Assembly (NCBI GenBank): GCA_963736895.1
Contig: CAVTQU010000008.1
Location: 436,535 to 500,534, forward strand
Origin: an uncultured Chloroflexia bacterium
Lineage (GTDB): Bacteria; Chloroflexota; Limnocylindria; Limnocylindrales; CSP1-4
Direction of reading: 5' to 3'
DNA: 64,000 nt
Below the pieces are notes generated by a model. The model did no database searches. It saw only the letters and a list, made by a program, of their open reading frames with translations, and had not been told where the DNA came from. Positions 665 to 20,961 of the stretch are shown here, piece by piece. Positions within the stretch are counted from its first letter, which is position 1; every line of letters starts with the position of its first letter. The translations under genes were made by a program, and so were the position numbers.

Positions 665-790
665 CGACCACTCGAGCGGCAACGGGCCGTAAATCGCCCA
701 CGGCTATACTCGGCCACGGCCCGAAACGTGCCGTCGGTGCAGCGCCCTACTCGCGCGGCCGGCCCTTCTGGAGATTCGACCGAGGTACCG

Positions 791-1669: not shown

Positions 1670-1793
1670 GCCGAAACAGACGCAAATCGTCGACCGGATG
1701 CTCGTCACAGCTCCCGTCCTCGCTCTCAATCAACGCGCAGTCGGTGCGCTCACGCCACCGTCACCGGCGTAAGGAAACCAGGGGTACTCGCGT

Positions 1794-3866: not shown

Positions 3867-3923
3867 CGGAGTAGTGCGCGGACGCACTCCCGACCGCGTT
3901 GGGTCGGCGTAGACTCGAAATCG

Positions 3924-4235
3924 ATGGCGACGTGGCGCTGCCCGAACTGCCGAACGGTCCAGGCTGATTCGTCCCGCTGTTTCCTGTGCGGTCGCTCCGC
4001 CACCAGCTGCGGGACGTGCGCCAACTTTCGTCAGTCGGTCGTCGGCGGTCTCGGCTTCTGCGGGCTCGACAAGAAACGCGCGCCGCTGAGCGGCGAAGAG
4101 CAGCGGGCGTGCTGGGCGGGCAGCTCCCAAGGACCGACCGACAGCATCTTTGCCGCATTTGCTGAAGCCACGGACAACGGCCTTATCACGGTGCGGCCGC
4201 CGCGCGGCAGCGTGAGACCAGTTACTGGACGGTGA
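3924..4235 (+). CDS. Small Cys-rich (zinc-ribbon-like) hypothetical protein
   Basis: 103 aa, ATG start; CPNC, CFLC, CGTC plus two more Cys; fills the gap after pknB. Confidence 0.7.
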   Translation: MATWRCPNCRTVQADSSRCFLCGRSATSCGTCANFRQSVVGGLGFCGLDKKRAPLSGEEQRACWAGSSQGPTDSIFAAFAEATDNGLITVRPPRGSVRPVTGR

Positions 4236-5333
4236 ACGAGGCGCTTCCCCGAAGCTCCTGACCTGAAGGCAGCGTCGCCAAAGCGGTCACCAGCCAGGCT
4301 CCCGTTGCGCTCGCATCGCCGGTCACAACCATGTTCGGCCAGGTCGCGCGGCCGCCGTCGGACGTCGTGGCACGGTAAGTGCTCGTGCCTCGGTTCGGCG
4401 GGGAGAGGCTGAACGTCACCGGCACGTTGTCCGCGGCGCGGCCAAGCTCGTCACGGACCAACGCCACAGCGCCGACCGTCGCCGGGAGATCGGATAGCGC
4501 CACGATCTCCGTGGATACCGTCAGGACGATCGAGGACAGACTCGTCGCCCGCGTCACCTCGAATCGGGTACTGCCCACGTTGCCGGCTGCGTCCCGGCTG
4601 CGCAGCACGAAAGCATTGGGACCCAGCTCCAATTCGATGGTTCGCCTGAAATCGCCCATCGTCCGAGACGGTCGCTTCGATCGGCCCGCCGGAGCTTTCT
4701 TCCTTGACCTCGATAGTGGCGCCTGGCTCAGTTCGGCCCCGTAGCGTTTCTGTCGGGTTGTAGACCATCCCGTCCGCGGCGGGGCTGGAGATCGATATTT
4801 CCGGTGCCGTTGAGTCGCGTACGACGGCCACTGAAACAGACATCTCACCTTCGCCCGCCGTCGCCCACGAGAGCGGCGCTGATCTCGTTCGAGCCTTCGT
4901 CGAGCGGGATGCCGCTGATCGTGAAGTTGCCTTCGCCCGGGACGCTGCGTTCGCGCACCACTCGCTCGTTGACGTATATGCGCAGCTGATCCGCCGTGGA
5001 TCGATCCAGGTCCGCGGGGAGTACCCCGGCGACATCGACGGTGGCCTCGTTGGTCACAGCGGGGTCCGGTTGAGTAAGCGTCACGCTGGGTGGCGGCGCC
5101 ACGCTCGGAGGCGGCTCGCCACGCCGCCCGGAGCCGTTGAACGTGCCACTGGCCAGCGCCAGCCCGGCTCCAACCAACAGGACAAGAGCCGCCGCCACGC
5201 CGATGCGCCGTGAGAAGCTGAAGCGTCGGGAGTGCGTCGGATCCTTGCGCTTGCGGCTGCGACCGGCCGGGCGCGCACCCTGCCGACGGGTGCCTTTGCT
5301 CTTCGTGTCAGCGCGCTTCGACGATCCCGGCAT
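4222..5333 (-). CDS. Membrane-anchored Ig-like-domain protein (two frameshifts, near 4860 and 4650)
   Basis: Basic N-terminus, TM helix, then beta-rich repeats (DSTAPEISISSP, GPNAFVLRSRDAAGN) spread across ORFs 4845..5333, 4451..5035 and 4222..4848. Confidence 0.7.
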
Positions 5334-5433
5334 CCGCGCGAATTGTCGCGGTGCGACAGACAGCGCGTTCGACGCCTCTGCGCGTGTACGCTAATGGCAA
5401 CGGTACCGGTCACGTGCCGTCTAGGGAGGTGGA

Positions 5434-5841
5434 GTGGATCAGTCGCGCAAACCGCTGGCAACGCTAGCCCGCACGGCTCTCCACGGACGTCCCACACCGC
5501 CGCAGCCGCCGCGTGGTCCCATCAGTCGGGTTTCCAGCAATCTGCTCATGCGACGGCCGGCCGAGCCGCCACAGGGCGCGGGAGCCTCGGTCCCACGCAT
5601 TCCGTTTGGCCTGCCGAACTTGCGCCGCAACGTGTGCCCGCACTTCTACATGACCGGTCCGCGCGGCCCCATTCCGATCAACGCGCCGCACCTTCTCAAG
5701 GCGCTCATGCGTCAGGACACCAACGTCGCGCGTTGCCAGCTGCGCGGCGGAGTGCACCTCGAGCAGGGCTACGTCTCTGACATCTGCCTCTCTCCGCGCT
5801 TCAACCAATGCGTCTTCTACGAGGACGAGCTCGACATCTGA
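5434..5841 (+). CDS. Hypothetical protein with C-terminal four-Cys motif
   Basis: GGAGG upstream of GTG; CPHF...C...C-x6-C-x-FY; lies directly upstream of folC. Confidence 0.65.
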   Translation: MDQSRKPLATLARTALHGRPTPPQPPRGPISRVSSNLLMRRPAEPPQGAGASVPRIPFGLPNLRRNVCPHFYMTGPRGPIPINAPHLLKALMRQDTNVARCQLRGGVHLEQGYVSDICLSPRFNQCVFYEDELDI

Positions 5842-5925
5842 CCGCACGCGTCGTGTCGGGCCGCGGTTCGGCGGCCGTCCACGAGGCGCGCAGCAGCGGC
5901 CAAAGGCCGTCTGCGGAGGTAGAAC

Positions 5926-7251
5926 GTGTCTCTCGAAGACGATGCCGATCCGCGCTACCGGGACGTTCTCGGCCGGCTGCAGGCGCGCGGAAGGTTTGGG
6001 ATCCACCTGGGGCTCGATCGCACGCACGCCATCCTCAAACGCCTTGGTGATCCGCATAAGGAACTGCGGGGCGCCCTCATTGGCGGCACCAACGGCAAGG
6101 GCAGCACGCAGCAGCTCGTCGCGTCGGTGCTGCGCGAAGGGGGCTACAGCGTCGGTCAGACGCCGAAACCTCATCTGGTCAGCTACCGCGAACGGATCGT
6201 GGTCGATGGCCAGCCCATCTCGCCCACCGATTTCGCCCAGCTGGTCGAAGAGGTCCTGGTCCAAGCCGACAAGGTCGAGGCGCGCCACGGCGCACCGACC
6301 GAGTTCGAGGTCCTGACCGCGGCTGCATTCGAGTGGTTCAGGCGCAGCAAGGTGGACGTGGCCGTCGTAGAGGTCGGTCTCGGTGGCCGCCTCGACGCGA
6401 CCAACGTCTGGCAAGGCGGTGTCAGCGCAATCACGAACGTCGCACTGGACCATATGGAGTACCTGGGCGATACGGTCGAGAAGATCGCCATCGAGAAGGC
6501 ACAAATCATCAAGCGCGGTGATTCCGCGGCGATCACTGGCGCCACCGAACCGGCGCTCGAGGAGATCCGCTTGCGCGCGGCGAGGGTCAACGTGCCCCTC
6601 GAGATCCGCGAGCCATTGGACGTGATCAGGCTGGATCGCAGCGGGGTCTTGGCCAGGACGGGGGCGGGTAGTGAGCTCAAGATCGGCCTGGTCGGTCGCC
6701 ACCAGGCAGCGAACGCGGCCGTGGCCCTGGGAATCCTGAATGGGCTCGATGCCGGCGGGATAGCACCGCTGAGGGATGGGGCAGTTGAGCGCGGGTTCGC
6801 CAACGCGCGTTGGCCGGGCCGGATGGAGCTCGTCAGCGTGGCCGGTCAGCCCGACATCCTGCTCGACGGCGCGCACAACCCGGCAGGAATGGCCGCGCTC
6901 GGCGAAGCCTTGACGGAGCTGCTCCCCCAGATGACGGCCGGATCACCAACGTTCGTGATTGGCATCCTGGCCAACCACTGGCAGGAGGGAATGCTCGACC
7001 CGGTGATCGATGCGGTCCCGAGCGGTGCCATGTTCGCCACGCGCGTGCCGGGCGCAGAAAACTCGCTGGAGCCACGCAAGCTGGCGTCCATCTGGGGTGC
7101 CGGTGCGGTGGAGATCGCGGTCCCGGAGCGCGCCTGGGAGTCCGCCCGCCAGCGCGCGGCCCAGGTCTCCGGTCCGTTGATCGTGTGTGGGTCGCTGTAC
7201 CTTGTCGGGTACATCAGGGCGCGGCTCATGGCGGCCGGCGCGATCGACTGA
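5926..7251 (+). CDS. folC: Folylpolyglutamate synthase/dihydrofolate synthase
   Basis: GTNGKGST, EVGLGGRLDATN, WPGRME, LDGAHNPAG. Confidence 0.95.
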   Translation: MSLEDDADPRYRDVLGRLQARGRFGIHLGLDRTHAILKRLGDPHKELRGALIGGTNGKGSTQQLVASVLREGGYSVGQTPKPHLVSYRERIVVDGQPISPTDFAQLVEEVLVQADKVEARHGAPTEFEVLTAAAFEWFRRSKVDVAVVEVGLGGRLDATNVWQGGVSAITNVALDHMEYLGDTVEKIAIEKAQIIKRGDSAAITGATEPALEEIRLRAARVNVPLEIREPLDVIRLDRSGVLARTGAGSELKIGLVGRHQAANAAVALGILNGLDAGGIAPLRDGAVERGFANARWPGRMELVSVAGQPDILLDGAHNPAGMAALGEALTELLPQMTAGSPTFVIGILANHWQEGMLDPVIDAVPSGAMFATRVPGAENSLEPRKLASIWGAGAVEIAVPERAWESARQRAAQVSGPLIVCGSLYLVGYIRARLMAAGAID

Positions 7252-7264
7252 ACACGGGAGGCAC

Positions 7265-8185
7265 ATGGACGCAACGCCCTCGGTCGACCTGCCCACGAAC
7301 GCCGAGTCGGGCATCCCCGAGCAGCCACCGCAGCCCACGCAGATCGGCCGCAAGGACTTCGCGTGGGGTAGCCGCACGTTCGTGATGGGCGTTGTCAATG
7401 TCACGCCCGATTCGTTCAGCGGCGATGGGTTGCTCGCCGCCGACAGCGGCAATCTCGCCGCCGCCGCGGCTGAACAGGCGGAGCAGATGGCCATGGAGGG
7501 CGCGGACCTCATAGATGTCGGCGGCGAGTCGACGCGTCCCGGACACGCGATCGTCGATGTTGCCGAGGAGCGCCGCCGTACCGAGCCGGTCGTGCGCGCG
7601 ATCCGTGCCGCGCTGCCGGATATGCCGATCAGCATCGATACGACCAAGCCCGAAATAGCGGCTGCCGCCCTGGACGCCGGTGCCGACCTACTGAACGACA
7701 TCTGGGGCACGGCCGACGACTCGGGCATGACGGCTTTGGCCGTTGAGCGCGGCGTGCCCATCGTCCTGATGCACAACCGCGCCGAGGCGCGCTACCGCAA
7801 CGTCGTCGCGGAGGTGATCGCCGATCTGCAGCGCGCCCTCGATCGTGCGCTGGCCGCCGGCGTCGACTGGAACAACCTCATCGTCGATCCGGGGATCGGG
7901 TTCGGCAAGACGCCGGAGCACAATCTGGCCGTGCTGCGCGATCTGTCGCTGATCACCGCTCTTGGTCGCCCGGTTCTTCTCGGGACGAGCCGCAAGTCGA
8001 CGATCGGCAAGGTGCTCGACCTGCCCGCCGATCAACGGCTGGAGGGTACCCTCGCAACGACGGCACTTGGAGTGGCCGCCGGGGCCGATATCGTGCGCGT
8101 CCACGACGTCGAGGCGAACGTCCGCGCGGCGCGGATGGCCGATGCCATTGTTCGTGGCGGTTGGCGCGAGGAGGACAACGAATGA
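7265..8185 (+). CDS. folP: Dihydropteroate synthase
   Basis: MGVVNVTPDSFSGDG, DVGGESTRPG, SIDT, DPGIGFGK, GTSRKS, RVHDV; ATG at 7265 after GGGAG. Confidence 0.95.
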   Translation: MDATPSVDLPTNAESGIPEQPPQPTQIGRKDFAWGSRTFVMGVVNVTPDSFSGDGLLAADSGNLAAAAAEQAEQMAMEGADLIDVGGESTRPGHAIVDVAEERRRTEPVVRAIRAALPDMPISIDTTKPEIAAAALDAGADLLNDIWGTADDSGMTALAVERGVPIVLMHNRAEARYRNVVAEVIADLQRALDRALAAGVDWNNLIVDPGIGFGKTPEHNLAVLRDLSLITALGRPVLLGTSRKSTIGKVLDLPADQRLEGTLATTALGVAAGADIVRVHDVEANVRAARMADAIVRGGWREEDNE

Positions 8186-8547
8186 GCGACCGCATCGTCC
8201 TGAGCCACATGGAATTCGAGGGTCATCACGGTGTTGGCGACGACGAACGGAGTCTCCCCCAGCTGATCGAGGTCGACGTCGAGATCTCTGCCGACCTTCA
8301 CGCCGCCGGCACGAGCGACGACCTCGAGCAGACCGTCAACTACAGCAGGGTGTTCGATCGGTGCCGACAGATCGTCGAAGAGCGCTCGTTCCATCTCCTG
8401 GAGGCGATCGGCCAGGCCATCGCATCGGATCTGCTCGATGGCTTCCCGCGCATCGAATCAGTCGTGGTGCGCGTCCGGAAGCCCGGCGTGCCTATTGACG
8501 GAGTGCTCGACTACGCGGGAGTCGAGATCGAGCGGTCGCGGTCCTAG
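8182..8547 (+). CDS. folB: Dihydroneopterin aldolase
   Basis: MSDRI, GHHGV...E, TVNYS, FHLLE, VRKP; ATGA overlap with folP. Confidence 0.92.
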   Translation: MSDRIVLSHMEFEGHHGVGDDERSLPQLIEVDVEISADLHAAGTSDDLEQTVNYSRVFDRCRQIVEERSFHLLEAIGQAIASDLLDGFPRIESVVVRVRKPGVPIDGVLDYAGVEIERSRS

Positions 8548-9929
8548 TCGAGCCCGGCCGGCCTCGTTCCAAGCGTCAGGCCCATCGACAGCGTCTGCCC
8601 GTCGCGCAGGACGCTGAGCGTCAGCCGATCGCCCGGCGAGAAGGCACTGAGGATGTCGTCGAGACCCTGTGACGTATCGATACGGATGCCGTTGATGGCC
8701 GTGATGATGTCGTTCGACTTGAGGCCTGCCGTCGCGGCGGGGCTATCGGGGACGATGGGCTCAGATCCGTCGGCCGTCTCGGGCGAGACCCAGGCGCCGT
8801 AGTCGATCGGCAGGTTGTTCTCGTCGGCGAGGCTCCTGTTCAGGGGCACATAGACCACGCCGATCCAGGGCCGGCTGAGTGGCTCGCCGGCCACCGCCTG
8901 GCGCATGATCGGCTTAGCGATGTTTATCGGGATGGCGAAGAAGATCCCCTGCGCCGACTCCGCGTAGGCGGTGCTCACACCGACGACGTTGCCTGCGGCG
9001 TCGACCAGCGGGCCGCCGGAGTTGCCCGGGTTGATCGCTGCGTCGGTCTGAACGAGGTTGCGCAGCTGGCGACGTTCGCCGGTCACCGGATCGCTGACCG
9101 CGAGCTGGCGGCCGAGCGCCGAGATGACACCCGATGTGACGCTATTGGTGAAGGTGCCCAGCGGGCTGCCGATAACGATGGCTGTCTGGCCCGGTTTGAG
9201 GGTTCCCGAGTCGCCGATCTGCGCGGCGGGCAGTCCCGTGGCGTCGATCTTGACGATCGCCAGGTCGGTGAGCGTATCGACGCCGTAGACGGTTGCCGGC
9301 AGCCGTCGGCCGTCCTGCAGCTCGACCGTAACCTGGGTCGCATCGGAGACCACGTGTCGGTTGGTGAGCACCCAGCCGTTGGGGTCGTAGATGATGCCCG
9401 AGCCAACGCCGGTCTCCGGCAGCGAGAACGGATCGGTCGCCTCGCCGGCACGGACGGTGATCGTGACCACGGCCGGGCTGACGGATTCGGCGGCGCTGGT
9501 TATCGCGGTCTGGTCGTCGACGATGACCGTCCGCGAGCTCGATTGGGGCTGCGGGGCTGGAGATGGCGACGCGACGGCAACGTTCGCGGATGTCAGGCTG
9601 CCGCTGTACACCAGGGCCATGTAGGTGACCGCCGAACCGATCGTCCCGGCGACGAGCGCCACGACGATGGCCATCGTGAGATACAGGCCTGAGCGGCCGC
9701 GCTTGCGTCGGCGCCGATCCTGGCCGGGGAGCGGCTCCAGCCAATGCTGGGGCGTCTGCTGCTGCCACGGCTGGGCGCTCCATGGCGAGCGCGTCTCCTG
9801 GGGCGGGCTGTAGGTGCTTGGACGTCCGTACGAAATCCCTGCGTTGGGATCCCCCACAGCCTCGGGAGGCGGGGGTGCGTAGGACTGAGTGTCTGGGTCG
9901 ATCTGATCCGGATCGCGCGGTTCTGTCAT
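8544..9929 (-). CDS. htrA: HtrA/DegP-like trypsin protease with TM anchor and PDZ domain
   Basis: GSGII, TNRHV (His), DLAIVK (Asp), QTDAAINPGNSGGPL (Ser), C-terminal PDZ. Confidence 0.92.
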   Translation of the reverse strand: MTEPRDPDQIDPDTQSYAPPPPEAVGDPNAGISYGRPSTYSPPQETRSPWSAQPWQQQTPQHWLEPLPGQDRRRRKRGRSGLYLTMAIVVALVAGTIGSAVTYMALVYSGSLTSANVAVASPSPAPQPQSSSRTVIVDDQTAITSAAESVSPAVVTITVRAGEATDPFSLPETGVGSGIIYDPNGWVLTNRHVVSDATQVTVELQDGRRLPATVYGVDTLTDLAIVKIDATGLPAAQIGDSGTLKPGQTAIVIGSPLGTFTNSVTSGVISALGRQLAVSDPVTGERRQLRNLVQTDAAINPGNSGGPLVDAAGNVVGVSTAYAESAQGIFFAIPINIAKPIMRQAVAGEPLSRPWIGVVYVPLNRSLADENNLPIDYGAWVSPETADGSEPIVPDSPAATAGLKSNDIITAINGIRIDTSQGLDDILSAFSPGDRLTLSVLRDGQTLSMGLTLGTRPAGLD

Positions 9930-9972
9930 CTGGGATTACTCACGGCAGCCGCAAGGTTGCCACGAACCTCGT

Positions 9973-11535
9973 TCAGGCGGGGACAGCGGCCGGTGAAGAA
10001 ACGGACATTTCGCGCGGCAAAGCAACGGAAACCTGCGTTCCAACGCCCGGAGTGCTGGTGATTGCGATGCGTCCATCGTGCATCTCCACGATCTGACGGA
10101 CGATCGACAGGCCAAGGCCGGATCCCGATGCGCGCGACTCGTGAGCCTGGGCTCCGCGGTAGAACCGGTCGAAGACCATCGGCAGTTCCTGCGGGTCGAT
10201 GCCCACGCCGGTGTCCACGACACGCATCTCGGCGCCCTCGTCGGTGGCCTCCAGAGTCACGTCGACCCTGCCGCCCCTGGGCGTGAACTTGATGGCGTTG
10301 CCAATGAGGTTGCCCAGCACCTGTCCAAGACGCTGAGGATCGTGCATCTGGCGCAACGGCTCGTCCGGAAGCGTCATCTCCAGGGTCACACCCTTGCGCT
10401 CCGCGCTGGGCATCTGCTGCTGGATTGTGTTCTCGACGACCGCGCGAAGATCGTCTGGACGAAGGTCCAGCAGGACAAGGCCCGATTCGAGCTTTGACAG
10501 CTCCAAGAGATTCGCGGCCAGCCAGTCCAGCCGATCGATCTGCTGGCGGCTCTGTTCGATGAACTCATGGCGCGTGGCCTCGTCCATGTGCTCTTCCTCG
10601 CCCAGCAGCTCGTTGAAGGTGCGCAGTGCGGCGATGGGTGTCCGCAGCTCATGTGACACGTCGGCGAGGAAATCGCGGCTGCGGTCGCGGTCCTTGCGGA
10701 TGAACTCGATCGAGCGTTGAAGGCGCTCGGCCATCGCGTTGAACGCCTCGGAGAGCTCCGCTACTTCCGGTGTTGCGCTCCGGGGCGTGACGCGGACGTC
10801 CAGGTGGCCCTCTGAGAGCTCGCGTGCCGCACCGGTCAGGCGGCGGATGGGCTGTGTCAGGCGGTCGGCGATGAACACCGACGCGATCACGGCGATGATC
10901 AGGGCGATGATCGCCGCAACGCTCAGGATCCCTGCAATGGTCTCCAGGGTCTGGGCCCGAAAGGTGAACGGTTGTGAGAGTTCAACAGTTACCAGCCGCT
11001 CGGGGGCTCCAGCGCCGGATTGACTCCAGAATGTGTCGGGAATCTGGACCTGGCCCGCGCCTGGATCGGACGAGATCGACTCGCGCTGCTGACCCGCCTG
11101 GCCGAAATCATCCGGTAGCGGGACCACAAGCTGGTAAGCCACCTGATCTGAATGCGCGGGGTCCGGTGCGATCGTGACGGTGACATTGGCCTGGGCGACG
11201 TCTCGCGCAAGCGTCAGCAGGAACCCGTCATCGGCTGTTCCGAGCGCAGAGCGAATGCCGTCGGCGGCGCTGAGCGGCTCGGTTGGCAGCAGGATGGGCT
11301 GAGCCGCGTTGCCGTTCGCGGTTTGATATTCGAAGATCTTGGTGGCAACGAAAAGCTTGACGACGCCTGCACGTCGATTGAGGTCGGCCGTCGACTGTTG
11401 GGCGAAGTAACCATCAAGCAGGCGCGGCAGGGTGGCGACCATCAGGCCCAGCGCGATGGCCACGACAAGGACGAACGCGATGACGAGTCGGGCTCGAAGC
11501 CCGGTAGCGAACTGCGGAATGTAGCGGCGCATCAA
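9973..11535 (-). CDS. HAMP-domain sensor histidine kinase
   Basis: Two TM helices, [15 protein letters not shown]-box, NAIKFT, DTGVGI, GSGLGL. Confidence 0.95.
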
Positions 11536-11541
11536 CGAGAC

Positions 11542-12240
11542 CTAGCGTTCGGCGAAGGCGTAGCCCGCTCCGCGGATGGTCAGGATGAAGGCAGGATCGG
11601 AGGGATCGTCCTCCAGCTTCTCGCGCAGGTGGCTGACGTGGACGTTGATCGTTTTCTCGTCCTGGTCCAGCGCTTCGTAGTCACGGACGAGCTCGAGCAG
11701 CTCCCGTCGAGTGAAGACGCGGCCTGGTTTGGATGCCAGGTGACGAAGGATCTCGAATTCCGTGGCAGTGAGGCTGATGCGCCGCGTGCCGCGCTGGACG
11801 CGGCGTCGCTCGAGGTCGATCAGCAGATCGCGATGGCGAATGACGCGGCCACCGGCGGCATCGGCCAGGTCGCCGTACGCGCGGCGCAACAGCGCCTTGA
11901 TACGGCTCATCAGCTCGCGCAGGCCGAACGGCTTGGTGAGGTAGTCGTCGGCGCCAAGCTCGAGGCCGATCACCTTGTCCATCTCCTCGTCGCGCGCGGT
12001 CAGGAACAGGACCGGCGCCTTATTTCCGGCGCCACGCACCCGGCGCAGCATCTCGAAGCCGTCCATGCCCGGAAGACGGACGTCGAGGATCACAAGATCC
12101 GGGGCGTTGCGCGTCGCCATCTCGAGGCCCTCTTCACCGTTCCGGGCCACGGTGACCTCGTAACCCTCCTGCTTCAGGGCATACTCGATCCCGCGCGCGA
12201 CGGCGTACTCGTCTTCGACGATGAGGATGGAAGCTGTCAT
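11542..12240 (-). CDS. OmpR-family response regulator
   Basis: ILIVEDE, LVILDVRLP, ADDYLTKPF, winged-helix C-terminus (TIRGAGY). Confidence 0.95.
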   Translation of the reverse strand: MTASILIVEDEYAVARGIEYALKQEGYEVTVARNGEEGLEMATRNAPDLVILDVRLPGMDGFEMLRRVRGAGNKAPVLFLTARDEEMDKVIGLELGADDYLTKPFGLRELMSRIKALLRRAYGDLADAAGGRVIRHRDLLIDLERRRVQRGTRRISLTATEFEILRHLASKPGRVFTRRELLELVRDYEALDQDEKTINVHVSHLREKLEDDPSDPAFILTIRGAGYAFAER

Positions 12241-12356
12241 GGCTGGTGATCGTACAACCGGCGGAGGCGCCGATTGGCTAAGGATGGATTGCCTTCGTTC
12301 AACCTGATGACCCGTGGCGGGCCAAATCTGTCGCTCGTGTTACGATCCGCGTCCCC

Positions 12357-13043
12357 ATGAAACGACCAACGCTCTCCGTACAGCCGCGCTCCGTCCGTGG
12401 CAAGGAAGTCGCCAAGCTCCGCCGAATTGGCACGCTGCCCGGCGTTGTCTACGGCGTCGGCCAGGAATTGCAGGCTATCGCGATGGATGCGCGCGAATTC
12501 GACCTCCTTCGACGCCAGGCGGGCCGCCACGCGGTCGTCGACCTGCAGCTCGACGGCGGCAAGCCGCTGCCCGTCCTGCTTCACGCGATCCAGGAGCACC
12601 CGGTCTCACGGAAGGCCATCCACATCGACTTCCTGGTCGTCAACATGGAAGAGGAGCGCACCATCGACGTGCCGATCCTCATCGTCGGTGAGTCGGACGC
12701 GGTCGAGAAAATGGGCGGCGTCCTCCTCCACCTGCGCGACTCGGTCCTTGTTCGCGCCAAGCCGGACGACATCCCTTCGGGCGTCGAGCTCGACATCACA
12801 ACACTGACCGACTTCGAGCTCACGCTCCACGCTTCAGACCTGCAAATTCCCGACGGCGTCACTCTCGTCACAGACGAGTCCGAGGCCGTAGCGCGCGTCC
12901 AGGCGCCGCGCATCGAGGAAGAGCCGGAGACCGTGGAGACAGAGGTCGCCGAGGGCGAAGCCGCCGAGGGCGCCGAAGGCGAGGCCGCCGAGGGCGCGGA
13001 GGGTGGCGAAGCCGCCGGATCCGGAGACGACTCCGAGTCTTAG
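12357..13043 (+). CDS. rplY: 50S ribosomal protein L25/general stress protein Ctc
   Basis: LRRIGTLPGVVYG, HPVSRKAIHIDF, acidic C-terminal tail. Confidence 0.93.
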   Translation: MKRPTLSVQPRSVRGKEVAKLRRIGTLPGVVYGVGQELQAIAMDAREFDLLRRQAGRHAVVDLQLDGGKPLPVLLHAIQEHPVSRKAIHIDFLVVNMEEERTIDVPILIVGESDAVEKMGGVLLHLRDSVLVRAKPDDIPSGVELDITTLTDFELTLHASDLQIPDGVTLVTDESEAVARVQAPRIEEEPETVETEVAEGEAAEGAEGEAAEGAEGGEAAGSGDDSES

Positions 13044-13067
13044 CCGCGCCTCATCAGGGCGGCCGCA

Positions 13068-13490
13068 CTACCCCGCGGCAGGCTCCGGTGGCAGCTCGCT
13101 GGTGCAGAACCTGCACCGCGTCGCATCAACAGCCACTTCTTCGTGGCAGAACGGGCACGTCCGCGTCGGCCCGGGCTTCGGCAGCAGCCAGCGAGTGATC
13201 AGGAACACCACGAACGCGACGATCACGAAGGTGAGCAGCGCGCTCAGGAACGTGCCGTAGCGGATCGCCACGGGGTCGCTCGTGGCCGTCCCTTCCTTGA
13301 GGACGATCTGTAGCTGGTCGAAATCGACCCCTCCGAGCAGCAAACCGATCGGCGGCATGATGATGTCGTTGACGAGCGACGCCACCACCGCCCCCAGCGC
13401 AACACCGAGCACCACGCCGACGGCGAGTGCCAATGCGTTGGACTTGGTCAGGAACGCGCGGAATTCGCTGAACATCTCTCCTCCACTCAC
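13068..13490 (-). CDS. mscL: Large-conductance mechanosensitive channel with C-terminal CxxC-CxxC ribbon
   Basis: FSEFRAFLTKSNALALAVGVVLG, VNDIIMPPIG, YGTFL; tail CPFC-x10-CRFC. Confidence 0.9.
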   Translation of the reverse strand: MSGGEMFSEFRAFLTKSNALALAVGVVLGVALGAVVASLVNDIIMPPIGLLLGGVDFDQLQIVLKEGTATSDPVAIRYGTFLSALLTFVIVAFVVFLITRWLLPKPGPTRTCPFCHEEVAVDATRCRFCTSELPPEPAAG

Positions 13491-13536
13491 CGACTGAGCC
13501 AGCCGCGGTAACGATACCGGCCGCTAACCTCACGAA

Positions 13537-14689
13537 GTGCTCCGATCGCTGCGAACGGCCATCATGGTCGGACTGCTTCTGGCGGCCTGCGCTAGTCCGG
13601 CGGGAAGCGCTCGACCGACGCCGACGACGCAACCAACGCACTTGAATCAACCATCGCTGGCGACCACAACAACGACGCCGAATGCGCCGGCGACCACACC
13701 TTCCTCAGCGCCCAGGCTCCCCGTCGATTCGCCGACCGCCGTTGGATCTTCTGCGGCACCCGCCGCAGAGTGGGTCCAGCGATCGGATGTAGCCGGTGGC
13801 CCCAGCGCCCGCCAGGACCACACCTGGACCGTCGACGAGGCGAACGAAGTCGCCTATCTCTTCGGTGGTCTCACGGCGGACGGAGCATCCAACGAGCTCT
13901 GGGCCTTCGATCTCGTCGGTCAGACCTGGACGCACGTCCAACCTGCGACAGATGGACCGGGCGCTCGCTTCGGCCACACGGCGACGTGGGTCCCTGGCGT
14001 TCGGTCTCGTTGTTTGGAGTGGCCAGGGGAAGTCGGCGTTCTTCGACGACATCTGGGCCTACGACCCCGGATCAAACTCCTGGACACAGCTGCCATCGGC
14101 AGGCGCGGTTCCTGAGGCCCGCTACGGTTCGTGCGCCACGCTAGGGCCGGACGGGGAGATGTGGATCAGCCACGGCTTCACCCAGGACGACGGCCGTTTC
14201 GCCGACACGCGCTCGTACGACTTCTCGAGCGCAATCTGGACGGATCGCACGCCCTCGGGCGACGTGCCGGTCAAACGCTGCCTGCATGACTGCTTCTGGT
14301 CAGCCGGCGGTCGGCTCATCCTTTACGGCGGGCAGACGACCGGAGTTGCGGCGTTGGGCGATATCTGGACGTTCGATCCCGCCGCTGGACGCTGGGAGAA
14401 GGGAATTGAGCAGGCTGCGCCGCCTCGTCAGCTCTACGCTTTGGCATCCGACCCTCGTTTCGGCAACCTGGTGTTCGGTGGCGGCAGCATTGACGGTGGC
14501 TTTCTCGGAGACACATGGGCCCTCGACTGGGGCGGACCGCAGCTGCACGCTCTCGAGTTCGCCGCCGGCCCCAGCGCTCGTGCCGGCGCGACGTTGATCG
14601 TTGATCCTGCCGGCCGTTACCTGCTTTTTGGAGGCACCAATCAGGACGGCCTGCTCGGCGACTTGTGGGACCTTTCGCTGCCCGAATAG
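13537..14689 (+). CDS. Kelch-repeat lipoprotein (frameshift near 14000)
   Basis: Lipobox LLAAC, P/T/S linker, repeated P-x-A-R...(F/Y)GG...D-x-W kelch blades across two frames. Confidence 0.8.
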
Positions 14690-14710
14690 CCACGTATTCG
14701 AGTACGTGGC
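14689..14710 (+). terminator. Perfect 8-bp hairpin at the kelch gene stop codon
   Basis: GCCACGTA-ttcgag-TACGTGGC; no U-tract. Confidence 0.35.
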
Positions 14711-14754
14711 GGTACGGATTTGCATGCGCGTAATGCGATCAGTGGGAAACCGGA

Positions 14755-14783
14755 TTGTTCGTGGAACCAGCGCGGCATAACGT
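14755..14783 (+). promoter_or_regulatory. Candidate sigma70-type promoter for the downstream structured RNA
   Basis: TTGTTC (14755-14760), 17 bp, TAACGT (14778-14783). Confidence 0.45.
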
Positions 14784-14789
14784 GCGTCA

Positions 14790-14901
14790 CAGACGTTGAA
14801 TGCGGAGTTCCCTCTCCTCCGCATCAAACGGTCAGGAGAACTCTTCTCCTGCTGAGGCCGGGCACGCCGCGCTGGGGCGCGCGCCCGGCCTCTTTCTATT
14901 T
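14790..14901 (+). ncRNA. Candidate small RNA with two pyrimidine-loop hairpins plus a terminator
   Basis: ATGCGGAG/CTCCGCAT stem with TTCCCTCTC loop; CAGGAGAA/TTCTCCTG stem; GAGGCCGGGC/GCCCGGCCTC stem followed by TTTCTATTT. No credible plus-strand CDS here. Confidence 0.45.
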
Positions 14902-15795
14902 CCCGGCCGCATTGCGGACTTGGGCCATCTGCCGGGCGCGCGCGGCAATAGCCGTCGCGAAGGTGCGCTCCGAGCCCGGCACAACGACCATGAAGAGTGA
15001 CGGCTCTGTCAGCTCCAGCTCCATCAGGATCGGCCGTCCATCCGACCCCGGGACCATGTCGACCCTGGCGTAGAGCAGCGGGCCCGCGTCGATGGGCACG
15101 GCCGCAACGGCGCGCAACGCCAGCTCGATCTGATCGTCGCTCGCGGTGCTAGGCGTGATCTCCTCGTCCAGATAGAGAGCATCTGCCGCGACTTCCGCCT
15201 TGCCCAACATCGCGCCCTTGCGGACGGCGTGGCTGAAACCGCCATCGATGAGGATCACAGCAGTCTCACCGACGTCGTCGATGGCATGCGCGAAGGGCTG
15301 CAGCATCACGGTGCGCCCGACATCGGTCAGCCGACGGATGTGGGCGGTCGCGAGGTCACGGGAACCTGCATCGCCGAGGTCGTAGCGCTGGGCGTCGATG
15401 GAGCCAGCGCCGATTGACGGCTTGATAACGAACTCGCCCGCGGTGGGCAGATCGATCGCATCCGAGGACGCGATCCACGTCGTGGTTACAGCCGGGACGC
15501 CAACCGCCGCGAGATCCTCCAGGTAGCGTTTGTCGGTGTTCCAGGCGACGATCTCCGGTGGGTTGAGGAGTCGCGGCACGGATCTCGCCCACGCCACGAA
15601 ACCATCTCGGTCATCCGTGTAGTCCCACGTTGAGCGGAGGATCGACAAGTCGAACCGCTCCCAGTCGACCGATGGGTCGTCCCACACGGAAGGCGTCACC
15701 CGCACGCCGAGATCGAGGAGCGGGCCGACGGCCAGCCGGTCATCCGGGTCGAGGTCGGGCAGACGCGAACAGGTGATGAGGGCTACGTCGAGCAA
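14896..15795 (-). CDS. RimK/glutathione-synthetase-like ATP-grasp ligase (DcsG-like)
   Basis: VWDDPSVDW, LRSTWDY, LLNPPEIVAWNTDKRYL, FVIKPSIGAGS, LYARVD, LMELELTEPSLF; probable TTG start at 15795. Confidence 0.85.
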   Translation of the reverse strand: MLDVALITCSRLPDLDPDDRLAVGPLLDLGVRVTPSVWDDPSVDWERFDLSILRSTWDYTDDRDGFVAWARSVPRLLNPPEIVAWNTDKRYLEDLAAVGVPAVTTTWIASSDAIDLPTAGEFVIKPSIGAGSIDAQRYDLGDAGSRDLATAHIRRLTDVGRTVMLQPFAHAIDDVGETAVILIDGGFSHAVRKGAMLGKAEVAADALYLDEEITPSTASDDQIELALRAVAAVPIDAGPLLYARVDMVPGSDGRPILMELELTEPSLFMVVVPGSERTFATAIAARARQMAQVRNAAGK

Positions 15796-15818
15796 GCCAG
15801 GGCCTGAGGCGGAGCGAG

Positions 15819-18157
15819 CTAGAGGACTGTCAGCTCGTTGGTGTGCGGGTCGGCTACGACAAACGTGCCCGTGTTGGACCAGTCGCTCCACTGCGACCCG
15901 TTGCCGTACTTGGAGCGAATGCGCCACGACCACGTGCCGGGCGCCATGTCGAACGTGGTGACGACCAGCGAGCCGGCTGCAGCGTCGTTGTTCTTGAGGG
16001 TCGCCTGTGAATCGACCGTGGCGAAGCCGTCGCGCGACAGCTGAACCTGCGCCCGCACGGCAGCTGGAGCGAGTCCGGGATTGGCCCACTTGAGGACCGC
16101 ACTCGATGCAATCACATCGGTAGTGGGCGCTGCGGCTGACTTGAGCCCCGACCAATGAACCACGAGGCGCGGTTCCAGCGTGCTTCCGCCGGTGGCACTC
16201 TCGGCGACAAGCCGCTTCCAGTGGCCGCGTCCTGCGTCGTCTGCATTTAGCACGAGGCCGTAGTTGGTCGTTGCGCCGGAGACGACGTCGGTAACGAACG
16301 ACGTGACGTCGATGTTCGACCACTGGCCCTGCGTCGTCTCAGCCGTTGTCGCCTGTGGTTCGGACGCTGGGCGAGCGTTCCACGTCAGTGTGCGCACGTC
16401 CCAGTCTTCAGTGACGCGTGCCACAGTCGAGGTACTGGGGGCCTCGGAGTCACTCTGCCAGTAGGGGAACGCGTCCAGCGAGGCCGACTCGATAGTTGTG
16501 CCGGTGAACAGGGTGGCCAGGCCCGGGAAGCGCAGGTACGCCTCGTTGTCGTCGCGCCGATCGGGTCGGCGGCCGTGCCACAGCTCGGCGTAGCCCGGCG
16601 CCTCGGGCCGCTGGTACGTGGAGAAGTTCGTGTTCGGGTGCGCGCTCGAGGCGAAGGTGTGGAGCGCGGCCGTCGCGTTGGTCGGGAAGTCGACGACGCC
16701 GAGATCGACGAAGGCCGGGTAGACGGCCTCGTCCAGCGCTGCGCGGTCGAGGACCAGCGTCAATGAGCTCGGCAGCGGCGTCCGAGCTGTCGACACGCAA
16801 CGAGACAGCGCCCGGTCGAACGGCGCCGCCATCGCCCTCGATGTCTGATGAGTCGAGAAGCATCGGACTGGGGATCCGGCCAAGGACAGCGCCATCGGCG
16901 TTGCGCAGGGTTACGGAGCCGTCTACCTCGGCGGCGAGCGTCAAACCAGCCGCATCGACATCGAATGTCACGGAGCGAGCAGCCGGTTCCTTGCTCAGGA
17001 TCAGGAATGCCTTGAAGCCGTCCGCCCGCGGGAAGATGCGCAGCCCGACACCGGGACCGAGCAGGTCGCGGTAGTCCGCGTACTCACCGTTCACGCCAAG
17101 CTCGGGAGCTCCAGCGTCGTCGCTTGCGCCGCGCGGATCCAAAGCGAGCGAAACGTCGCCAGCCTGCAGGCCAACAAGTGGCGCGTCTGTCGAGGCGTCG
17201 GCAACCGTGACCTTTACGGGTGACTTGTCCGAGACGGCCCCGGAGGTGTCGGAGTGCGCCGTGCTCAGGAACTGCAAACCGGAGGTCGATCGGCTGCCAT
17301 TCCGCGGAGCCCTGCGGCAGGTAGTTGATCGGCCGGGCAAAGAGCTCGGTCGTGAACTGACCGTGATCGTCGTAGGTGCGCGAGTTGGCGGTTCGAAGGT
17401 CGACGCGTTCGTCGCCCGCGACCGCAGGTCCCTGTGCGATGTCCTCGGCCGGCGCTTCTGGCGCCCACGCCACCGCTGGAACGAGCGCGGCCGGCGCTTC
17501 GGGAGTGTCGTTGAGGATCGTCGGCAGGACGATATGCCCGGGCTTGAACGGGCCGCGCTTGCCGGTCCAGTCGACCGCCAGGAAGCCCGTCGGTGGGATC
17601 GTGATGCCAGCCAGCGAGTGGACTGTGACGCCGGTGACCAGCGCGCTGATGACGCGGCCGTCGCCGAGGTAGATGCCGATGTGCTCGCCGTTGCCGTAGA
17701 TGACGAGGTCACCGCGCTCGGCTTCCTCGGGATCGGTGGTCAGCAGGTTGTGGGCCGCGAACCAGCGCAGATAGCCCGCGGCACGCATGCGCAGGCCGCC
17801 GATCTGGTTGAGCTCGGCAGAATTCGAGAAGGCGCGGAAGACAAGGCCGGAGCAGTCGATGGTGTCCGGGCCTTCGGTTCCGACGCGATACGCGACGCCG
17901 AGATAGGAGCGCGCGGCCGCGATCATGGCCTCGATACGCGCGTCGGCGGCAGGATCGTTGGTGGTGGATTCGTTCCGTGCTGCGGGTGTGAGCCGGTTGA
18001 GAGACGGTGCCCTGGTCGGCAGGCGGGTGGGCGGGATCGTCGGCAAAGACGGCCGCCGGCAGCACCGTGACGACCGCTGCGAGGGCAGCCGCTAACGCGA
18101 GACTGAGGCGGCGACGGTGGCCATATGTGGAGCGGCTCACGGAAGGACCGTGGGCAT
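15819..18157 (-). CDS. Secreted NlpC/P60 peptidase fused to a DNRLRE-type wall-protein module (at least 3 frameshifts)
   Basis: Signal peptide (RRRLSLALAAALAAVV...VFA); DCSGLV and HIGIY catalytic motifs; RTANSRTY...FARPINY...WQPIDL; YPAFVD; TLTWN-x-RP and NYGLVL (DNRLRE-like). Confidence 0.7.
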
Positions 18158-18206
18158 CTGTCTCCCCCTCTGTCTGGGCACTAGCGGCAGGCTGGGACGC
18201 CATCGC

Positions 18207-18281
18207 TGGAGCCGACACTCGGATTTGAACCGAGGACCTGCTGTTTACGAAACAGCTGCTCTACCGCTGAGCTATGTCGGC
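18207..18281 (-). tRNA. tRNA-Thr (anticodon CGT)
   Basis: GCCGACA acceptor stem, GCTCAGCGGTAGAGC D-arm, GCTGT-TTCGTAA-ACAGC anticodon arm, GGTTCAAATCC T-arm, encoded CCA. Confidence 0.97.
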
Positions 18282-18387
18282 GCCGACGGTAATAGTAGCA
18301 ATCGGCACCTTCAACCCCTTTTGTCCATCTAATTGCGCAGTGACGCGCGTCATATGTCAATATAGATGCGCTGGCGGCGCCCAGCGT

Positions 18388-19752
18388 TCAATCTTGGATT
18401 CGCAAGATCGGATGGTTGGCATTGAACATGTCGGTCGGGTCGTATTTCGTCTTCGCCAGCAACAGCCGGTCGTAGGTCTCGGCGGGAAAAATTGTTCGCG
18501 GGTCGACCGCTGACTCGGCGAAGTTCAGGTACTTCCGACCGCTGTCCCAGGGCCTTAGTGCGTCGAGTACGAGCTTGGAGTGCCGATCCACTGCTTCGTA
18601 CGCCTCCGTGTCGGGAGCCAAGCCGAAAGTGAAGGTCACGAAGGGCTGATCGATCGCATCCAGCACACCGTTATCGGGCGTACGCAACTTCGGCCGCGCC
18701 ACCCAGGTGGCGAACCTCGAAATGCAGGAGCGGCGAGCCGACGAATGCCTCCACGGCTTTGTCGATGGCCGCTGCCGGGAAATCGGTAAGCAGGAGCCCG
18801 TCGCCGGTGTAGGGCAAGCGGCTACTCCGGATCCATGTGGACGGTGCTCAGGTCGCTCGGCGGCATCATCGTCACCGTGTCGAACTCGGGTCCGAGGTCG
18901 CGGAGCGCTGCACTAGGAGCGGCCGCCCTCGGTGGCCGTGCCGAGGAAAGCCGCCTCGACCATTGCGAACGAGCGGCCGCGCAGGTGCTCGGGCAGGAAC
19001 TCAGCGTTCGGGAGCTGCAGCATGCGGCACAGCGATTCGCACTCATCCGGCACGGTCTCGATCCATCGAACGCCATGCGTTGAGGATCTCGGTTGCGCGC
19101 TCGATCGGCCAGAACAGGGCGCCGGCGTAGATCTCCGTGATCGGGAACAGCTCTAGCTCGAGCGCGGTCACGGCAGCAGAAGTTGCCGCCTCCGCCACGG
19201 ATCGCCCAGAAGAGCTCCGGTTCAGTCTCCCAGTCGATGCGCGAGGTGACGGCCGTCCGCGGTGACCACCTCGGCCGCGACGATCGAGTTGCAGGCGAGC
19301 CCGAACATGCGAACCATCCAGCTCAGGCCGCCGCCAAGCGCGTAGCCGAATACTCCGACGTCCGGCGATGTGCCCGCGAGATAGGCAAGACCGTGCTCGC
19401 CGGCGGCCACGGCGAGTGGCTTTCCGAGCGTTCCCGGCTCGATCCTGGCACGCCGCGCACTCGGATCGATCTCGATGCCGCGCATCCGGTCCCATTTCAG
19501 GAGCAGCGTGTCGCGGCTCCAGTCGATGGTGCCGGCGTTGTGGCCGCCGGCGTTGAACGCGATGCGCAGGCCGCGCTCCGCGGCCATATTAGCGATCGTG
19601 GCAACCACGTCGTCCGCCGACTCTGGGTAGACGATGGCCACCGGCCGCTGGTCGACAGCGAGATTCCACGACTTCCGCGCGGTGTCCCAGGCTTCGTCTG
19701 TGGGCAGGACGATCTCGCCCTGGATGCGGCCGCTCACATCACGAAGGTCCAT
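18388..19752 (-). pseudogene. FAD-binding oxidoreductase (berberine-bridge family), multiply disrupted
   Basis: GGHN FAD motif, ELFWAIRGGGGNF, C-terminal YLNF...KYDPTDMFNANHPI; several frameshifts plus an in-frame TAG (MDPE*P) near 18822-18824. Confidence 0.7.
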
Positions 19753-20961
19753 CTAGATGATCTGATTCGTCTTCAGCTCCGCGATGGTGGGCGGGTCGTA
19801 GCCGAGCTCGGCCAGGATCTCGCCCGAGTGCTCCCCGAGGAGCGGCGGTGCGGAGCGGATCGAGGCCGGCGTGTCGGACAGCTTGTAGGGCAGGCCGACC
19901 TGGCTGATCGGGCCGAGCCGCGGATGATCGACAACCTGCGTCATGCCGCGGGCCTGGGCCTGCGCCTGGTCAAAGGCCTCAACGACGCCGTTCACGGGCC
20001 CGCTCGGCACGTCCGCCGCGTCGAGCGCGGCGAGCCAGTTGGCCGACGGCTCCGAGATGAACCGTGCCGCCAGAAGCGGACGCAGCTCGGTGCGGTTGCG
20101 GACGCGCGCGTCGTTGTCGGCGAACCGTGGATCGGCGGTGAGATGGTCAAGGCCGAGGGCATGGCACAGGCGCGGCCACTGCCGTTCGCTGCCCACGGCA
20201 ACGGCAATCTCGCCATCCGCTGTAGCGAACGTCTCGTAGGGCACGATGTTCGGATGTGCGTTGCCGCGCCGATCTGGTGAGTGCCCGTTGACGAACGCGT
20301 TCTGGGCCTGGTTGATGAGCATCGCCAGCGTTGATTCGAGAAGCGACACGTCGATGCGCTGGCCGACGCCGGCGCGGATCGCGGCCAGGATGCCAACCGT
20401 CCCGAGCAGACCGGTGACGATGTCCGTGATCGCCACGCCGACCTTGGTGGGCTGACCGCCGTCGGCATCGGCAAAGCCGGTCACGGACATCAAGCCGCCA
20501 ACCGCCTGGGCGATGAAGTCGTAGCCCGGCTTGCCCGCGTCTGGGCCATCGGCGCCGTAGCCGGTGATCGCCAGGTGAACGAGGCGCGGATTGATCTCAG
20601 CGAGACGGGAGTCGTCGAAGCCCAGCTTGGCCAGCCCGCCGGGACGATGGTTCTCGATGAGGACGTCCGACTTCTCGAGCAGCCGCCCGAGGACCTCTTG
20701 CCCCTGTGGCTGCCGGAGATCCAGTCGCAGGCTGCGCTTGTTTCGATTCACCGCCAGGAAGTACGCCGCGACGCGTTCGCCGTCGGCCTCCACCCACGGC
20801 GGGCCATACCCGCGCGTGGCGTCTCCGTCGGGTGGCTCGACCTTGATCACGTCGGCACCGAGATCGGCAAGCACCATCCCGCTGTACGGCCCGGCAAGAA
20901 CCGTGGACAGCTCGAGGACGCGGATTCCCGCCAGCGGGCCGGGGTGCGCTTCTTCGCTCAT
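19753..20961 (-). CDS. CaiB/BaiF class III CoA-transferase
   Basis: GPLAGIRVLEL, LADLGADVIKVEPP-GD, NRNKRSL, DVLIENHRPG, APPLLGEHS. Confidence 0.93.
   Translation of the reverse strand: MSEEAHPGPLAGIRVLELSTVLAGPYSGMVLADLGADVIKVEPPDGDATRGYGPPWVEADGERVAAYFLAVNRNKRSLRLDLRQPQGQEVLGRLLEKSDVLIENHRPGGLAKLGFDDSRLAEINPRLVHLAITGYGADGPDAGKPGYDFIAQAVGGLMSVTGFADADGGQPTKVGVAITDIVTGLLGTVGILAAIRAGVGQRIDVSLLESTLAMLINQAQNAFVNGHSPDRRGNAHPNIVPYETFATADGEIAVAVGSERQWPRLCHALGLDHLTADPRFADNDARVRNRTELRPLLAARFISEPSANWLAALDAADVPSGPVNGVVEAFDQAQAQARGMTQVVDHPRLGPISQVGLPYKLSDTPASIRSAPPLLGEHSGEILAELGYDPPTIAELKTNQII

Follow-up and report, generated by a model that had tools for sequence, protein, structure and literature searches.

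RsaE/RoxS and other small regulatory RNAs (sRNAs) of Firmicutes with UCCC motifs use unpaired C-rich loops to target Shine-Dalgarno (SD) regions, and they do so largely independently of Hfq. In enterobacteria, MicA, RybB and MicL are transcribed from promoters of the extracytoplasmic function (ECF) sigma factor Sigma-E and form the repressing arm of the regulon of that sigma; they depend on Hfq and use seeds at their 5' ends against the messenger RNAs (mRNAs) of outer-membrane proteins. Here we describe an element of an uncultured bacterium of the Limnocylindrales (Chloroflexota), located on the plus strand at positions 14763-14901 of a 64,000-nucleotide stretch of contig CAVTQU010000008.1, and this whole stretch is called the window below. 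From the comparison of related genomes, we consider with a probability of roughly 60% that the element is an independent noncoding RNA gene of about 110 nucleotides (nt), which would be driven by an ECF sigma factor, made under stress, and able without a chaperone to block purine-rich ribosome-binding sites through a C/U-rich loop. The element is unrelated to MicA, RybB and MicL in sequence and structure. It also differs from RsaE/RoxS in architecture, in regulators (ResD/Rex) and in phylum, and it has no match to them in Rfam.

The loops of 6C RNA are C-rich and pair without a chaperone with G-rich ribosome-binding regions of many mRNAs, as described for B11/6C of M. tuberculosis (PMC6486639). 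Like the 6C RNAs of Actinobacteria, the element is about 100 nt long, has a C-rich loop and an intrinsic terminator, and occurs in a high-GC host of the Terrabacteria that has no Hfq. However, 6C has two loops with at least six C each, whereas the loops of the element are UUCCCUCUC and CUC, with the core CCCUCUC, and only one of them is conserved, as the second stem-loop (SL2) is variable or absent. In addition, 6C is actinobacterial and SigA/SigB-dependent, whereas the element has a putative ECF-type promoter and its hosts belong to one genus of Chloroflexota. Judged by its loops, by the Rfam 6C model, which gave no match, and by its host, the element does not belong to 6C.

Cuckoo RNAs consist of two to four adjacent hairpins, each with CCUCCUCCC in its loop, and an anti-SD mechanism has been proposed for them (PMC4615179). 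The element resembles this family (CcsR1-4/RSs0680, SmelC397; PMC4615179, PMC8034643) in its modular hairpins, its covarying stems, its anti-SD-like C/U loop and the varying number of hairpin modules, and the expression of cuckoo RNAs is linked to stress. But CCUCCUCCC is absent from the element of the source genome, which has UCCCUCUCC, and the conserved motif is present in the first stem-loop (SL1) only. The cuckoo family is also alphaproteobacterial, Hfq-associated and often derived from the 3' untranslated region (3'UTR) after DUF1127 genes, none of which applies to the element. As a cuckoo RNA carries CCUCCUCCC in every loop, the element falls outside this family too.

A search of the whole window against Rfam 15 at the gathering threshold returned only a transfer RNA at 18210-18281. 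In a sensitive search of positions 14650-14950 (301 nt, up to E = 10), no family reached its cut-off, and 6C and RsaE were not among the matches. The best scores below the threshold were those of Pxr (19.4 bits, cut-off 80), SorY (17.8 bits, cut-off 111) and SorX (14.5 bits, cut-off 46.6), with E values of 0.2-0.3 for Pxr and SorY. Pxr of Myxococcus (RF01812) and SorY of Rhodobacter (RF02651) both have three hairpins and a similar length, and the first loop of Pxr is C-rich, but the scores were far under the cut-offs and the resemblance was one of general shape only. The literature that we searched described no regulatory sRNA for Limnocylindria, as judged by title or abstract. It is well supported that the element represents a new sRNA family, found in one genus of uncultured soil Chloroflexota and of a mechanistic kind that is already known, and a preliminary description of the locus, made from its letters alone, had likewise called the RNA undescribed.

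Position and fold of the element

The element lies in a gap of 206 bp between the stop codon of a kelch-repeat gene (TAG, 14687-14689, plus strand) and the stop codon of a convergent ATP-grasp gene (14896-14898, minus strand). It folds as three hairpins, which are SL1, SL2 and the GC-rich terminator SL3, and its parts are as follows.

14791-14901, plus strand: predicted sRNA transcript of about 108-111 nt, from the conservation between promoter and terminator, the covariance-model matches and the G-U strand bias
14792-14833, plus strand: SL1, an interrupted helix of about 14 bp in total, from the minimum free energy fold and compensatory changes
14808-14816, plus strand: SL1 loop UUCCCUCUC, putative seed, anti-SD-like
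14833-14851, plus strand: SL2, CAGGAGAA-CUC-UUCUCCUG, with arms CAGGAG/CUCCUG and a variable loop
14854-14892, plus strand: SL3, GC-rich terminator hairpin with a 10-bp GC stem, a 5-bp apical extension and the invariant apical motif GCGCUGGGGCGC
14893-14901, plus strand: U-rich tail UUUCUAUUU, with an interrupted U tract

The upper stem of SL1 has 8 bp (14800-14807/14817-14824), and its basal helix has 6 bp with one bulge (14792-14797/14827-14833). The 5' end of the sRNA would fall at 14790-14794 and its 3' end within the U-rich tail. The preliminary description had proposed a stem of about 14 bp with a loop, a second stem and a 10-bp GC stem with a U-rich tail, all of which were found again, and its estimate of about 110 nt agreed with the distance from the invariant promoter-like motif to the terminator. 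It had also placed the RNA in a gap of about 200 bp between convergent genes without a credible coding sequence, and this was right as well: indels among the homologues are not multiples of three and the overlapping open reading frames (ORFs) are not kept as frames, so the region is not coding. A small ORF after the SD-like CAGGAG of SL2 was considered and rejected, as it has no start codon and indels break its frame.

The folding energy of the plus strand was -60.5 kcal/mol, compared with -39.9 +/- 3.3 kcal/mol in 200 shuffles, none of which was as good (z = -6.17). But the minus strand of the element folds just as well (z = -6.59), so the fold energy cannot decide the strand. As in an intrinsic terminator, a U tract comes directly after the GC-rich hairpin of SL3; this tract is interrupted and varies among homologues, where the tail is rich in U yet has no clean run. 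A terminator scan found the hairpin at 14871-14889 with the U tail on the plus strand only.

Distribution and covariation

The source genome (G000) is a 3.0-Mb metagenome-assembled genome (MAG) with 59% completeness and one copy of the element. When 60 related genomes were searched at the DNA level, 22 of the 31 further members of the genus had full-length matches at 73-89% identity, and no real match was found in five sister genera and the sister family. Then, a covariance model was made from the 23 sequences that plain DNA similarity had retrieved, and it added five more members, short variants among them. At least 27 of the 31 further members of the genus (Limnocylindrales MAGs) have a recognisable copy. 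Matches to the model scored 72-127 bits in 83 loci. It is single-copy in most genomes, with two or three copies in a few. Three species genomes, one of which holds two copies, have variants of 89-91 nt without SL2, and SL2 is dispensable. The covariance model gave no convincing match in 301 genomes of the class, nor with lax filters in 38 other genera of the family, and marginal matches outside the genus (22-28 bits) were rejected as homologues, the C/U loop being absent from them.

Across 185,579 species genomes, the sequence pattern of SL3 was confined to 29 stretches, 28 of them labelled Chloroflexota, Chloroflexia, Anaerolineaceae or Limnocylindria/-ales; it was also present on 53 metagenome contigs, every one longer than 1 kb and none showing transcript ends. 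The lone outlier (L060, DATMKC010000099.1) is a 4.4-kb contig of an 'Egibacteraceae' MAG with a full sRNA copy at 88 bits, which differs in one base from one copy in the Limnocylindrales MAG SMAG_U13611, and this contig was probably mis-binned. In another genus of the family, GCGCUGGGGCGC is likewise the apical motif of a terminator-like hairpin (L163, G288:C13:32524-32619; 26.4 bits) whose stem is different; this hairpin is preceded by CCGTA/CGGAT-like blocks, and its first loop is not C/U-rich. It may be distantly related to the sRNA, or the two may have a protein-binding motif in common.

In a structure-blind MAFFT alignment, with the full SL1 included, 96.7% of the cells were paired, with double changes at 9 pairs; none of 500 shuffles was as good, and slid partners paired in only 40-52%. 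When 70 distinct sequences were aligned to the model, 98.7% were paired and 11 pairs had double changes, which 0 of 500 shuffles matched, so the proposed structure is conserved among homologues. Most of the covariation signal was in SL1, where compensatory changes were seen at 6 of 7 upper-stem pairs in the 70 sequences, and the basal helix covaried too (pairs 6-45 and 9-41). SL3 had compensatory changes at 4 pairs, as well as A-U/G-U and C-G/U-G exchanges. The sequence of the SL2 stem was invariant in 64 of 65 sequences, the remaining one being a compensatory variant (CAGGCG/CGCCUG), while the SL2 loop had 3-13 nt and was often not C/U-rich (e.g., CCAAAAC, AACCAAU).

The core of the SL1 loop, CCCUCUC, was present in about 56 of the 70 distinct sequences, and the remainder had close C/U-rich variants. 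The core is thus near-invariant although its own stem covaries, which agrees with the anti-SD-like loop of the preliminary description. As for the strand, 8 A-U to G-U and 8 C-G to U-G exchanges would become C.A mismatches on the opposite strand, and in the MAFFT alignment of 23 sequences the pairing was 97.0% on the plus strand versus 93.8% on the minus strand. The G-U pairs favour the plus strand as the transcribed one. By comparison among genomes, the element has the features of a trans-acting base-pairing sRNA, which are a putative promoter and terminator of its own, the lack of a coding frame and a conserved single-stranded candidate seed.

Putative promoter and candidate sigma factor

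The promoter proposed in the preliminary description was TTGTTC-17-TAACGT. Both hexamers are present (14755-14760 and 14778-14783) with a spacer of 17 nt, and the -10 part is conserved as TAnnnT, but TTGTTC is not conserved in the homologues, and only about one third of the sequences have TTG at this position. A sigma-70 consensus scan found no promoter in 14500-15100, nor anywhere in 1-20000. The ribosomal RNA (rRNA) promoter of the source genome looks sigma-70-like (TTGACC-N18-CACAAT). The following elements emerged when 66 distinct upstream sequences were aligned, among them those of paralogous copies and of both genomic contexts described below.

14763-14767, plus strand: -35 element GGAAC of the ECF-sigma type, invariant in 66/66 and always exactly 16 nt from nCGTn
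14784-14788, plus strand: -10 element GCGTC of the ECF type, with CGT invariant in 66/66
14778-14783, plus strand: TAACGT, an alternative or overlapping sigma-70-type -10 element with the pattern TAnnnT

The -10 element was GCGTC in 52 sequences, CCGTC in 6, GCGTT in 4, TCGTC in 2 and GCGTA in 2. In TAnnnT, the first T was conserved in 57/66, the A in 65/66 and the final T in 65/66. An ECF promoter has GGAAC/AAC at -35, a spacer of 16-17 nt and CGT(C/T) at -10; GGAAC-N16-nCGTn was found in all 66, and the motif is also kept in extra copies of the element, namely the two in G016 and one in G010 that was aligned separately. Mapped sigmaH/sigmaE promoters of C. glutamicum read GGAACn-N16-CGTT, with which GGAAC-N16-nCGTn shares shape and spacing (PMC10012870). 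The putative sRNA promoter is therefore better supported as an ECF-sigma type than as TTGTTC-17-TAACGT, and a promoter of this type means that the sRNA is probably made under a stress signal.

The same motif, GGAAC-N16-nCGTC, recurs in the source genome at G000:C1:94284-94309, where a SigM/RpoE-like ECF sigma gene (C1:93.6-94.3 kb) ends. It overlaps the last sigma codons (M-E-L-L-R-E) and the stop codon, after which the -10 element stands (L193, C1:94284-94330). Its CGTC is 8 nt before the GTG of the anti-sigma-like gene that follows, a distance that points to an anti-sigma transcript without a leader. In 29 of 30 sigma-ortholog loci examined across the genus (L194-L221 orthologs), the motif precedes the anti-sigma-like gene, and TAnnnT is not kept at this site (e.g., GTGAGAACGTC and GATGCCTGACGTC). 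The anti-sigma gene rshA is read from a promoter that depends on SigH (PMC3489674). With this precedent, and with the same motif ahead of its own anti-sigma-like gene, the SigM/RpoE-like sigma is a reasonable candidate for the activator of the sRNA. In the whole source genome the motif had 62 matches, 43 of them outside confident ORFs, which was too noisy to define a regulon. The ECF sigma gene (G000:C1:93600-94420) is split over two frames in G000 and intact in L194, L201 and L205; an indel in the assembly is the likely reason for the split, and further genes of the same MAG may be affected likewise.

Genomic context

The neighbouring genes and the DNA upstream of the promoter are as follows.

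13796-14689, plus strand: upstream kelch-repeat gene (Pfam kelch families), a variable neighbour outside the element
14896-15795 (start approximate), minus strand: convergent ATP-grasp gene, DcsG-like below the cut-off (NCBIfam NF058666, 243 bits; cut-off 360)
14708-14755, no strand: conserved upstream DNA blocks, GTACGGAT-like, CGTAA, ATCAGTG (14738-14744) and CCGGAT (14750-14755)

On the downstream side, the ATP-grasp gene is constant in about 15 loci, and its stop codon is usually at most about 20 nt from the 3' end of the sRNA. The upstream gene differs, being a kelch gene in about 12 genomes and the gene of ribosomal protein L25/Ctc in about 11, and about 100 bp of upstream sequence with the promoter accompany the element in both contexts alike. 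Because the upstream gene is kelch or L25 depending on the genome, the element is not a 3'UTR of the kelch gene, and the independence from this gene that had been supposed at the outset is borne out by the half of the genus, approximately, in which L25 stands upstream. In the window, L25/Ctc is located at 12357-13043 with the kelch gene between it and the sRNA, and elsewhere in the genus L25 directly precedes the sRNA. The kelch gene is present in about half of the genus and L25 is adjacent in the other half, which means that the kelch gene was either inserted or lost.

The upstream blocks can also be read as GTACGGATACC-like, CCGTAAC-like, ATCAGTG and CGGCGGAT-like, with the forms GTACGG(A/G)TACC and CCGTA, and they contain repeated GTAC/CGGAT motifs. 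Alignments of 28 and 66 upstream sequences showed that the blocks are kept whichever gene precedes. RNAalifold found no consensus RNA structure in them on either strand. They probably act as DNA-level signals and may be binding sites of a regulator.

Proposed mechanism and candidate targets

In the mechanism that we propose, an ECF-type alternative sigma factor, for which the SigM/RpoE-like factor is the candidate, would read GGAAC-N16-GCGTC and start the sRNA, and transcription would stop at the SL3 hairpin, which probably also terminates the convergent ATP-grasp gene. The long covarying hairpin would present the near-invariant C/U-rich UCCCUCUCC(UCC) in its loop, and this loop would bind several mRNAs at their purine-rich ribosome-binding regions (GGAGAGGGA-like) by base-pairing, by which translation initiation would be blocked. 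The SL1 loop together with its 3' arm, UUCCCUCUCCUCC (also written UCCCUCUCCUCC), resembles the 16S rRNA 3' end of the source genome, ...GAUCACCUCCUUUCU (also given ...CACCUCCUUUCU), and is anti-SD-like in sequence. No Hfq was found in any of 32 genomes of the genus, where the positive controls were detected, and no CsrA was detected in the source genome. The pairing would thus be Hfq-free and rely on G-C-rich pairing, as for actinobacterial 6C, which acts without a chaperone (PMC6486639). We infer the transcription of the sRNA, its sigma factor, the base-pairing and the identity of the targets, and an action in trans with translational repression is suggested by the analogy with 6C, cuckoo and RsaE-type sRNAs. 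A contact between the GGGG of SL3 and the UCCC of SL1, loop to loop, or the binding of a protein may also play a part.

After the mature 16S 3' end (…CCUCCUUUCUA) comes GGGAGAGGGA (G000:C3:455619-455628, L067), nine bases of which (GGAGAGGGA) perfectly complement the sRNA loop UCCCUCUCC. This tract is identical in the six genomes of the genus with an assembled rRNA operon, differs in the sister family (GGGAGCUUCUG), and pairs locally with a downstream CCCUCCC.

Besides the sRNA gene itself, the only perfect complement to 12 nt of the loop in the source genome was GAGGAGAGGGAA, which is located at codons 2-6 in the gene of a BldN-like ECF sigma (C11:262454-263059). This tract is near-invariant across the genus, including synonymous sites with the rare codons AGG/AGA, and a covarying hairpin follows it; in other genera, which do not have the sRNA, the same position is still purine-rich with a different sequence. 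It is possible, if rather doubtful, that the mRNA of the BldN-like sigma is a target of the sRNA. As hypothetical targets, a CpaE/TadZ-like gene has an 11-nt site at its ribosome-binding site, the leader of an AzgA-like purine permease gene has two, and such a site also precedes a lipoprotein gene at C1:117835. The two GAGGAGAGGGA copies in the permease leader are 42 nt apart (G000:C3:418972-419025), the second one overlapping the ATG, and the permease frame is broken by an in-frame stop in the G000 assembly.

The BldN-like sigma gene (C11:262454-263140, L080; orthologs L081-L109, L165-L192) is conserved across the family with an invariant TGTAAC-N15/16-GTGTT block. Its frame is open from a GTG/TTG inside GTGTT, and the purine-rich tract and the covarying hairpin lie within the first 15 or so codons. 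A leaderless TAGACT promoter for this gene was rejected, as other genera keep TGTAAC-N15/16-GTGTT and not TAGACT. If the sRNA were made by the SigM/RpoE-like sigma and its loop paired with the tract GAGGAGAGGGAA in the BldN-like sigma mRNA, it would link two ECF sigmas, which we regard as an unlikely arrangement. If true, there would be an RNA-mediated hierarchy of alternative sigma factors in an uncultured phylum-level lineage without Hfq.

Alternative explanations

Several points weigh against an ECF-driven sRNA that pairs with ribosome-binding sites. The conservation of TAnnnT between the ECF elements makes a sigma-70-type promoter with GGAAC as an operator possible, and among 27 sigma-70 region-2 matches in the source genome, which is 59% complete, no sigma gene has the motif upstream of itself. 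The efficiency of termination is uncertain because the U tail UUUCUAUUU is interrupted. Target prediction is unspecific because anti-SD-like seeds match many sites; the chance expectation of the 12-nt match is about 13%, and there is no clean covariation between loop and target, the loop variants of G024 and G015 not being mirrored and G010 changing both sides ambiguously. In addition, the sequence does not covary but is fixed in the SL2 arms and in the SL3 apical loop, a pattern that recognition by a protein would explain as well as pure base-pairing or better. The invariance of SL3 is partly an effect of retrieval, because the search pattern required fixed SL3 positions and variation at these positions is invisible in sequences retrieved by it, but the SL3 apex is also invariant in the 23 sequences retrieved by plain similarity. 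The RNA could accordingly be real and exert its effect chiefly through a bound protein, being a sponge or scaffold to which an RNA-binding protein or ribosomal components attach, with the SL2 arms and the GCGCUGGGGCGC of SL3 as sites. For this speak the SL2 stem, kept in 64/65 sequences while its loop varies freely, the SL3 apex just mentioned, and the L163 hairpin of another genus (26.4 bits), in which the same GCGCUGGGGCGC caps a different stem. Yet SL2 is wholly absent from the short variants of three species genomes, no CsrA or Hfq homologue was found, the SL1 loop is the most conserved single-stranded element in the classical layout of a pairing seed, and the SL3 invariance partly comes from the retrieval pattern, so we consider a mainly protein-binding RNA quite improbable. 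The other view of the promoter is that a housekeeping sigma uses TAnnnT (14778-14783), with GGAAC/GCGTC serving as regulator site and discriminator and with an RNA whose synthesis is constitutive or tied to growth instead of being induced by stress. The A and the final T are each conserved in 65/66, a start site placed 7 nt after it would coincide exactly with the base of SL1, and 6C RNA in C. glutamicum is SigA/SigB-dependent (PMC5014011). We hold this to be unlikely: the -35 position is poorly conserved with TTG in about a third of the sequences, the consensus scan finds nothing, and GGAAC, the 16-nt spacing and CGT, each kept in 66/66, recur at the sigma/anti-sigma locus without TAnnnT.

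The element stands on the same strand directly after a gene in every genome, so it could also be the structured 3'UTR and terminator of the upstream kelch or L25 gene, possibly processed to an sRNA, with GGAAC...CGTC serving otherwise. 3'UTR-derived sRNAs with anti-SD loops are known, such as CcsR (PMC8034643), and the hairpin after the kelch stop (14690-14709) has no U tract. But the upstream gene varies, and the element is nevertheless accompanied by the same 100 bp or so of upstream sequence and promoter motif, both promoter elements and their spacing are invariant in 66/66, and the extra copies (two in G016, one in G010) retain the motif, which makes a 3'UTR origin very unlikely. It is hardly credible that the locus is only a bidirectional terminator of convergent genes, with fortuitous hairpins, sites acting at the DNA level and no stable functional RNA. 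The ATP-grasp stop does abut SL3 in most genomes and the minus strand folds equally well, but SL1, which is 60 nt from the convergent stop, still covaries around an invariant loop, the G-U pairs favour the plus strand, and a terminator needs no invariant promoter-like motif ahead of it.

Significance

The Limnocylindria, a class of Chloroflexota from soil and freshwater, are abundant and uncultured. The element does not reveal a new kind of mechanism. It offers a clean comparative case with 70 distinct sequences, covariation, a promoter motif, a candidate sigma factor and ranked targets, and it could seed an Rfam family. It would extend the principle of Hfq-free pairing between a C/U-rich loop and purine-rich ribosome-binding sites to Chloroflexota from Actinobacteria, Firmicutes and Alphaproteobacteria, and its promoter motif may help to define an ECF regulon in organisms that are not yet cultivable.

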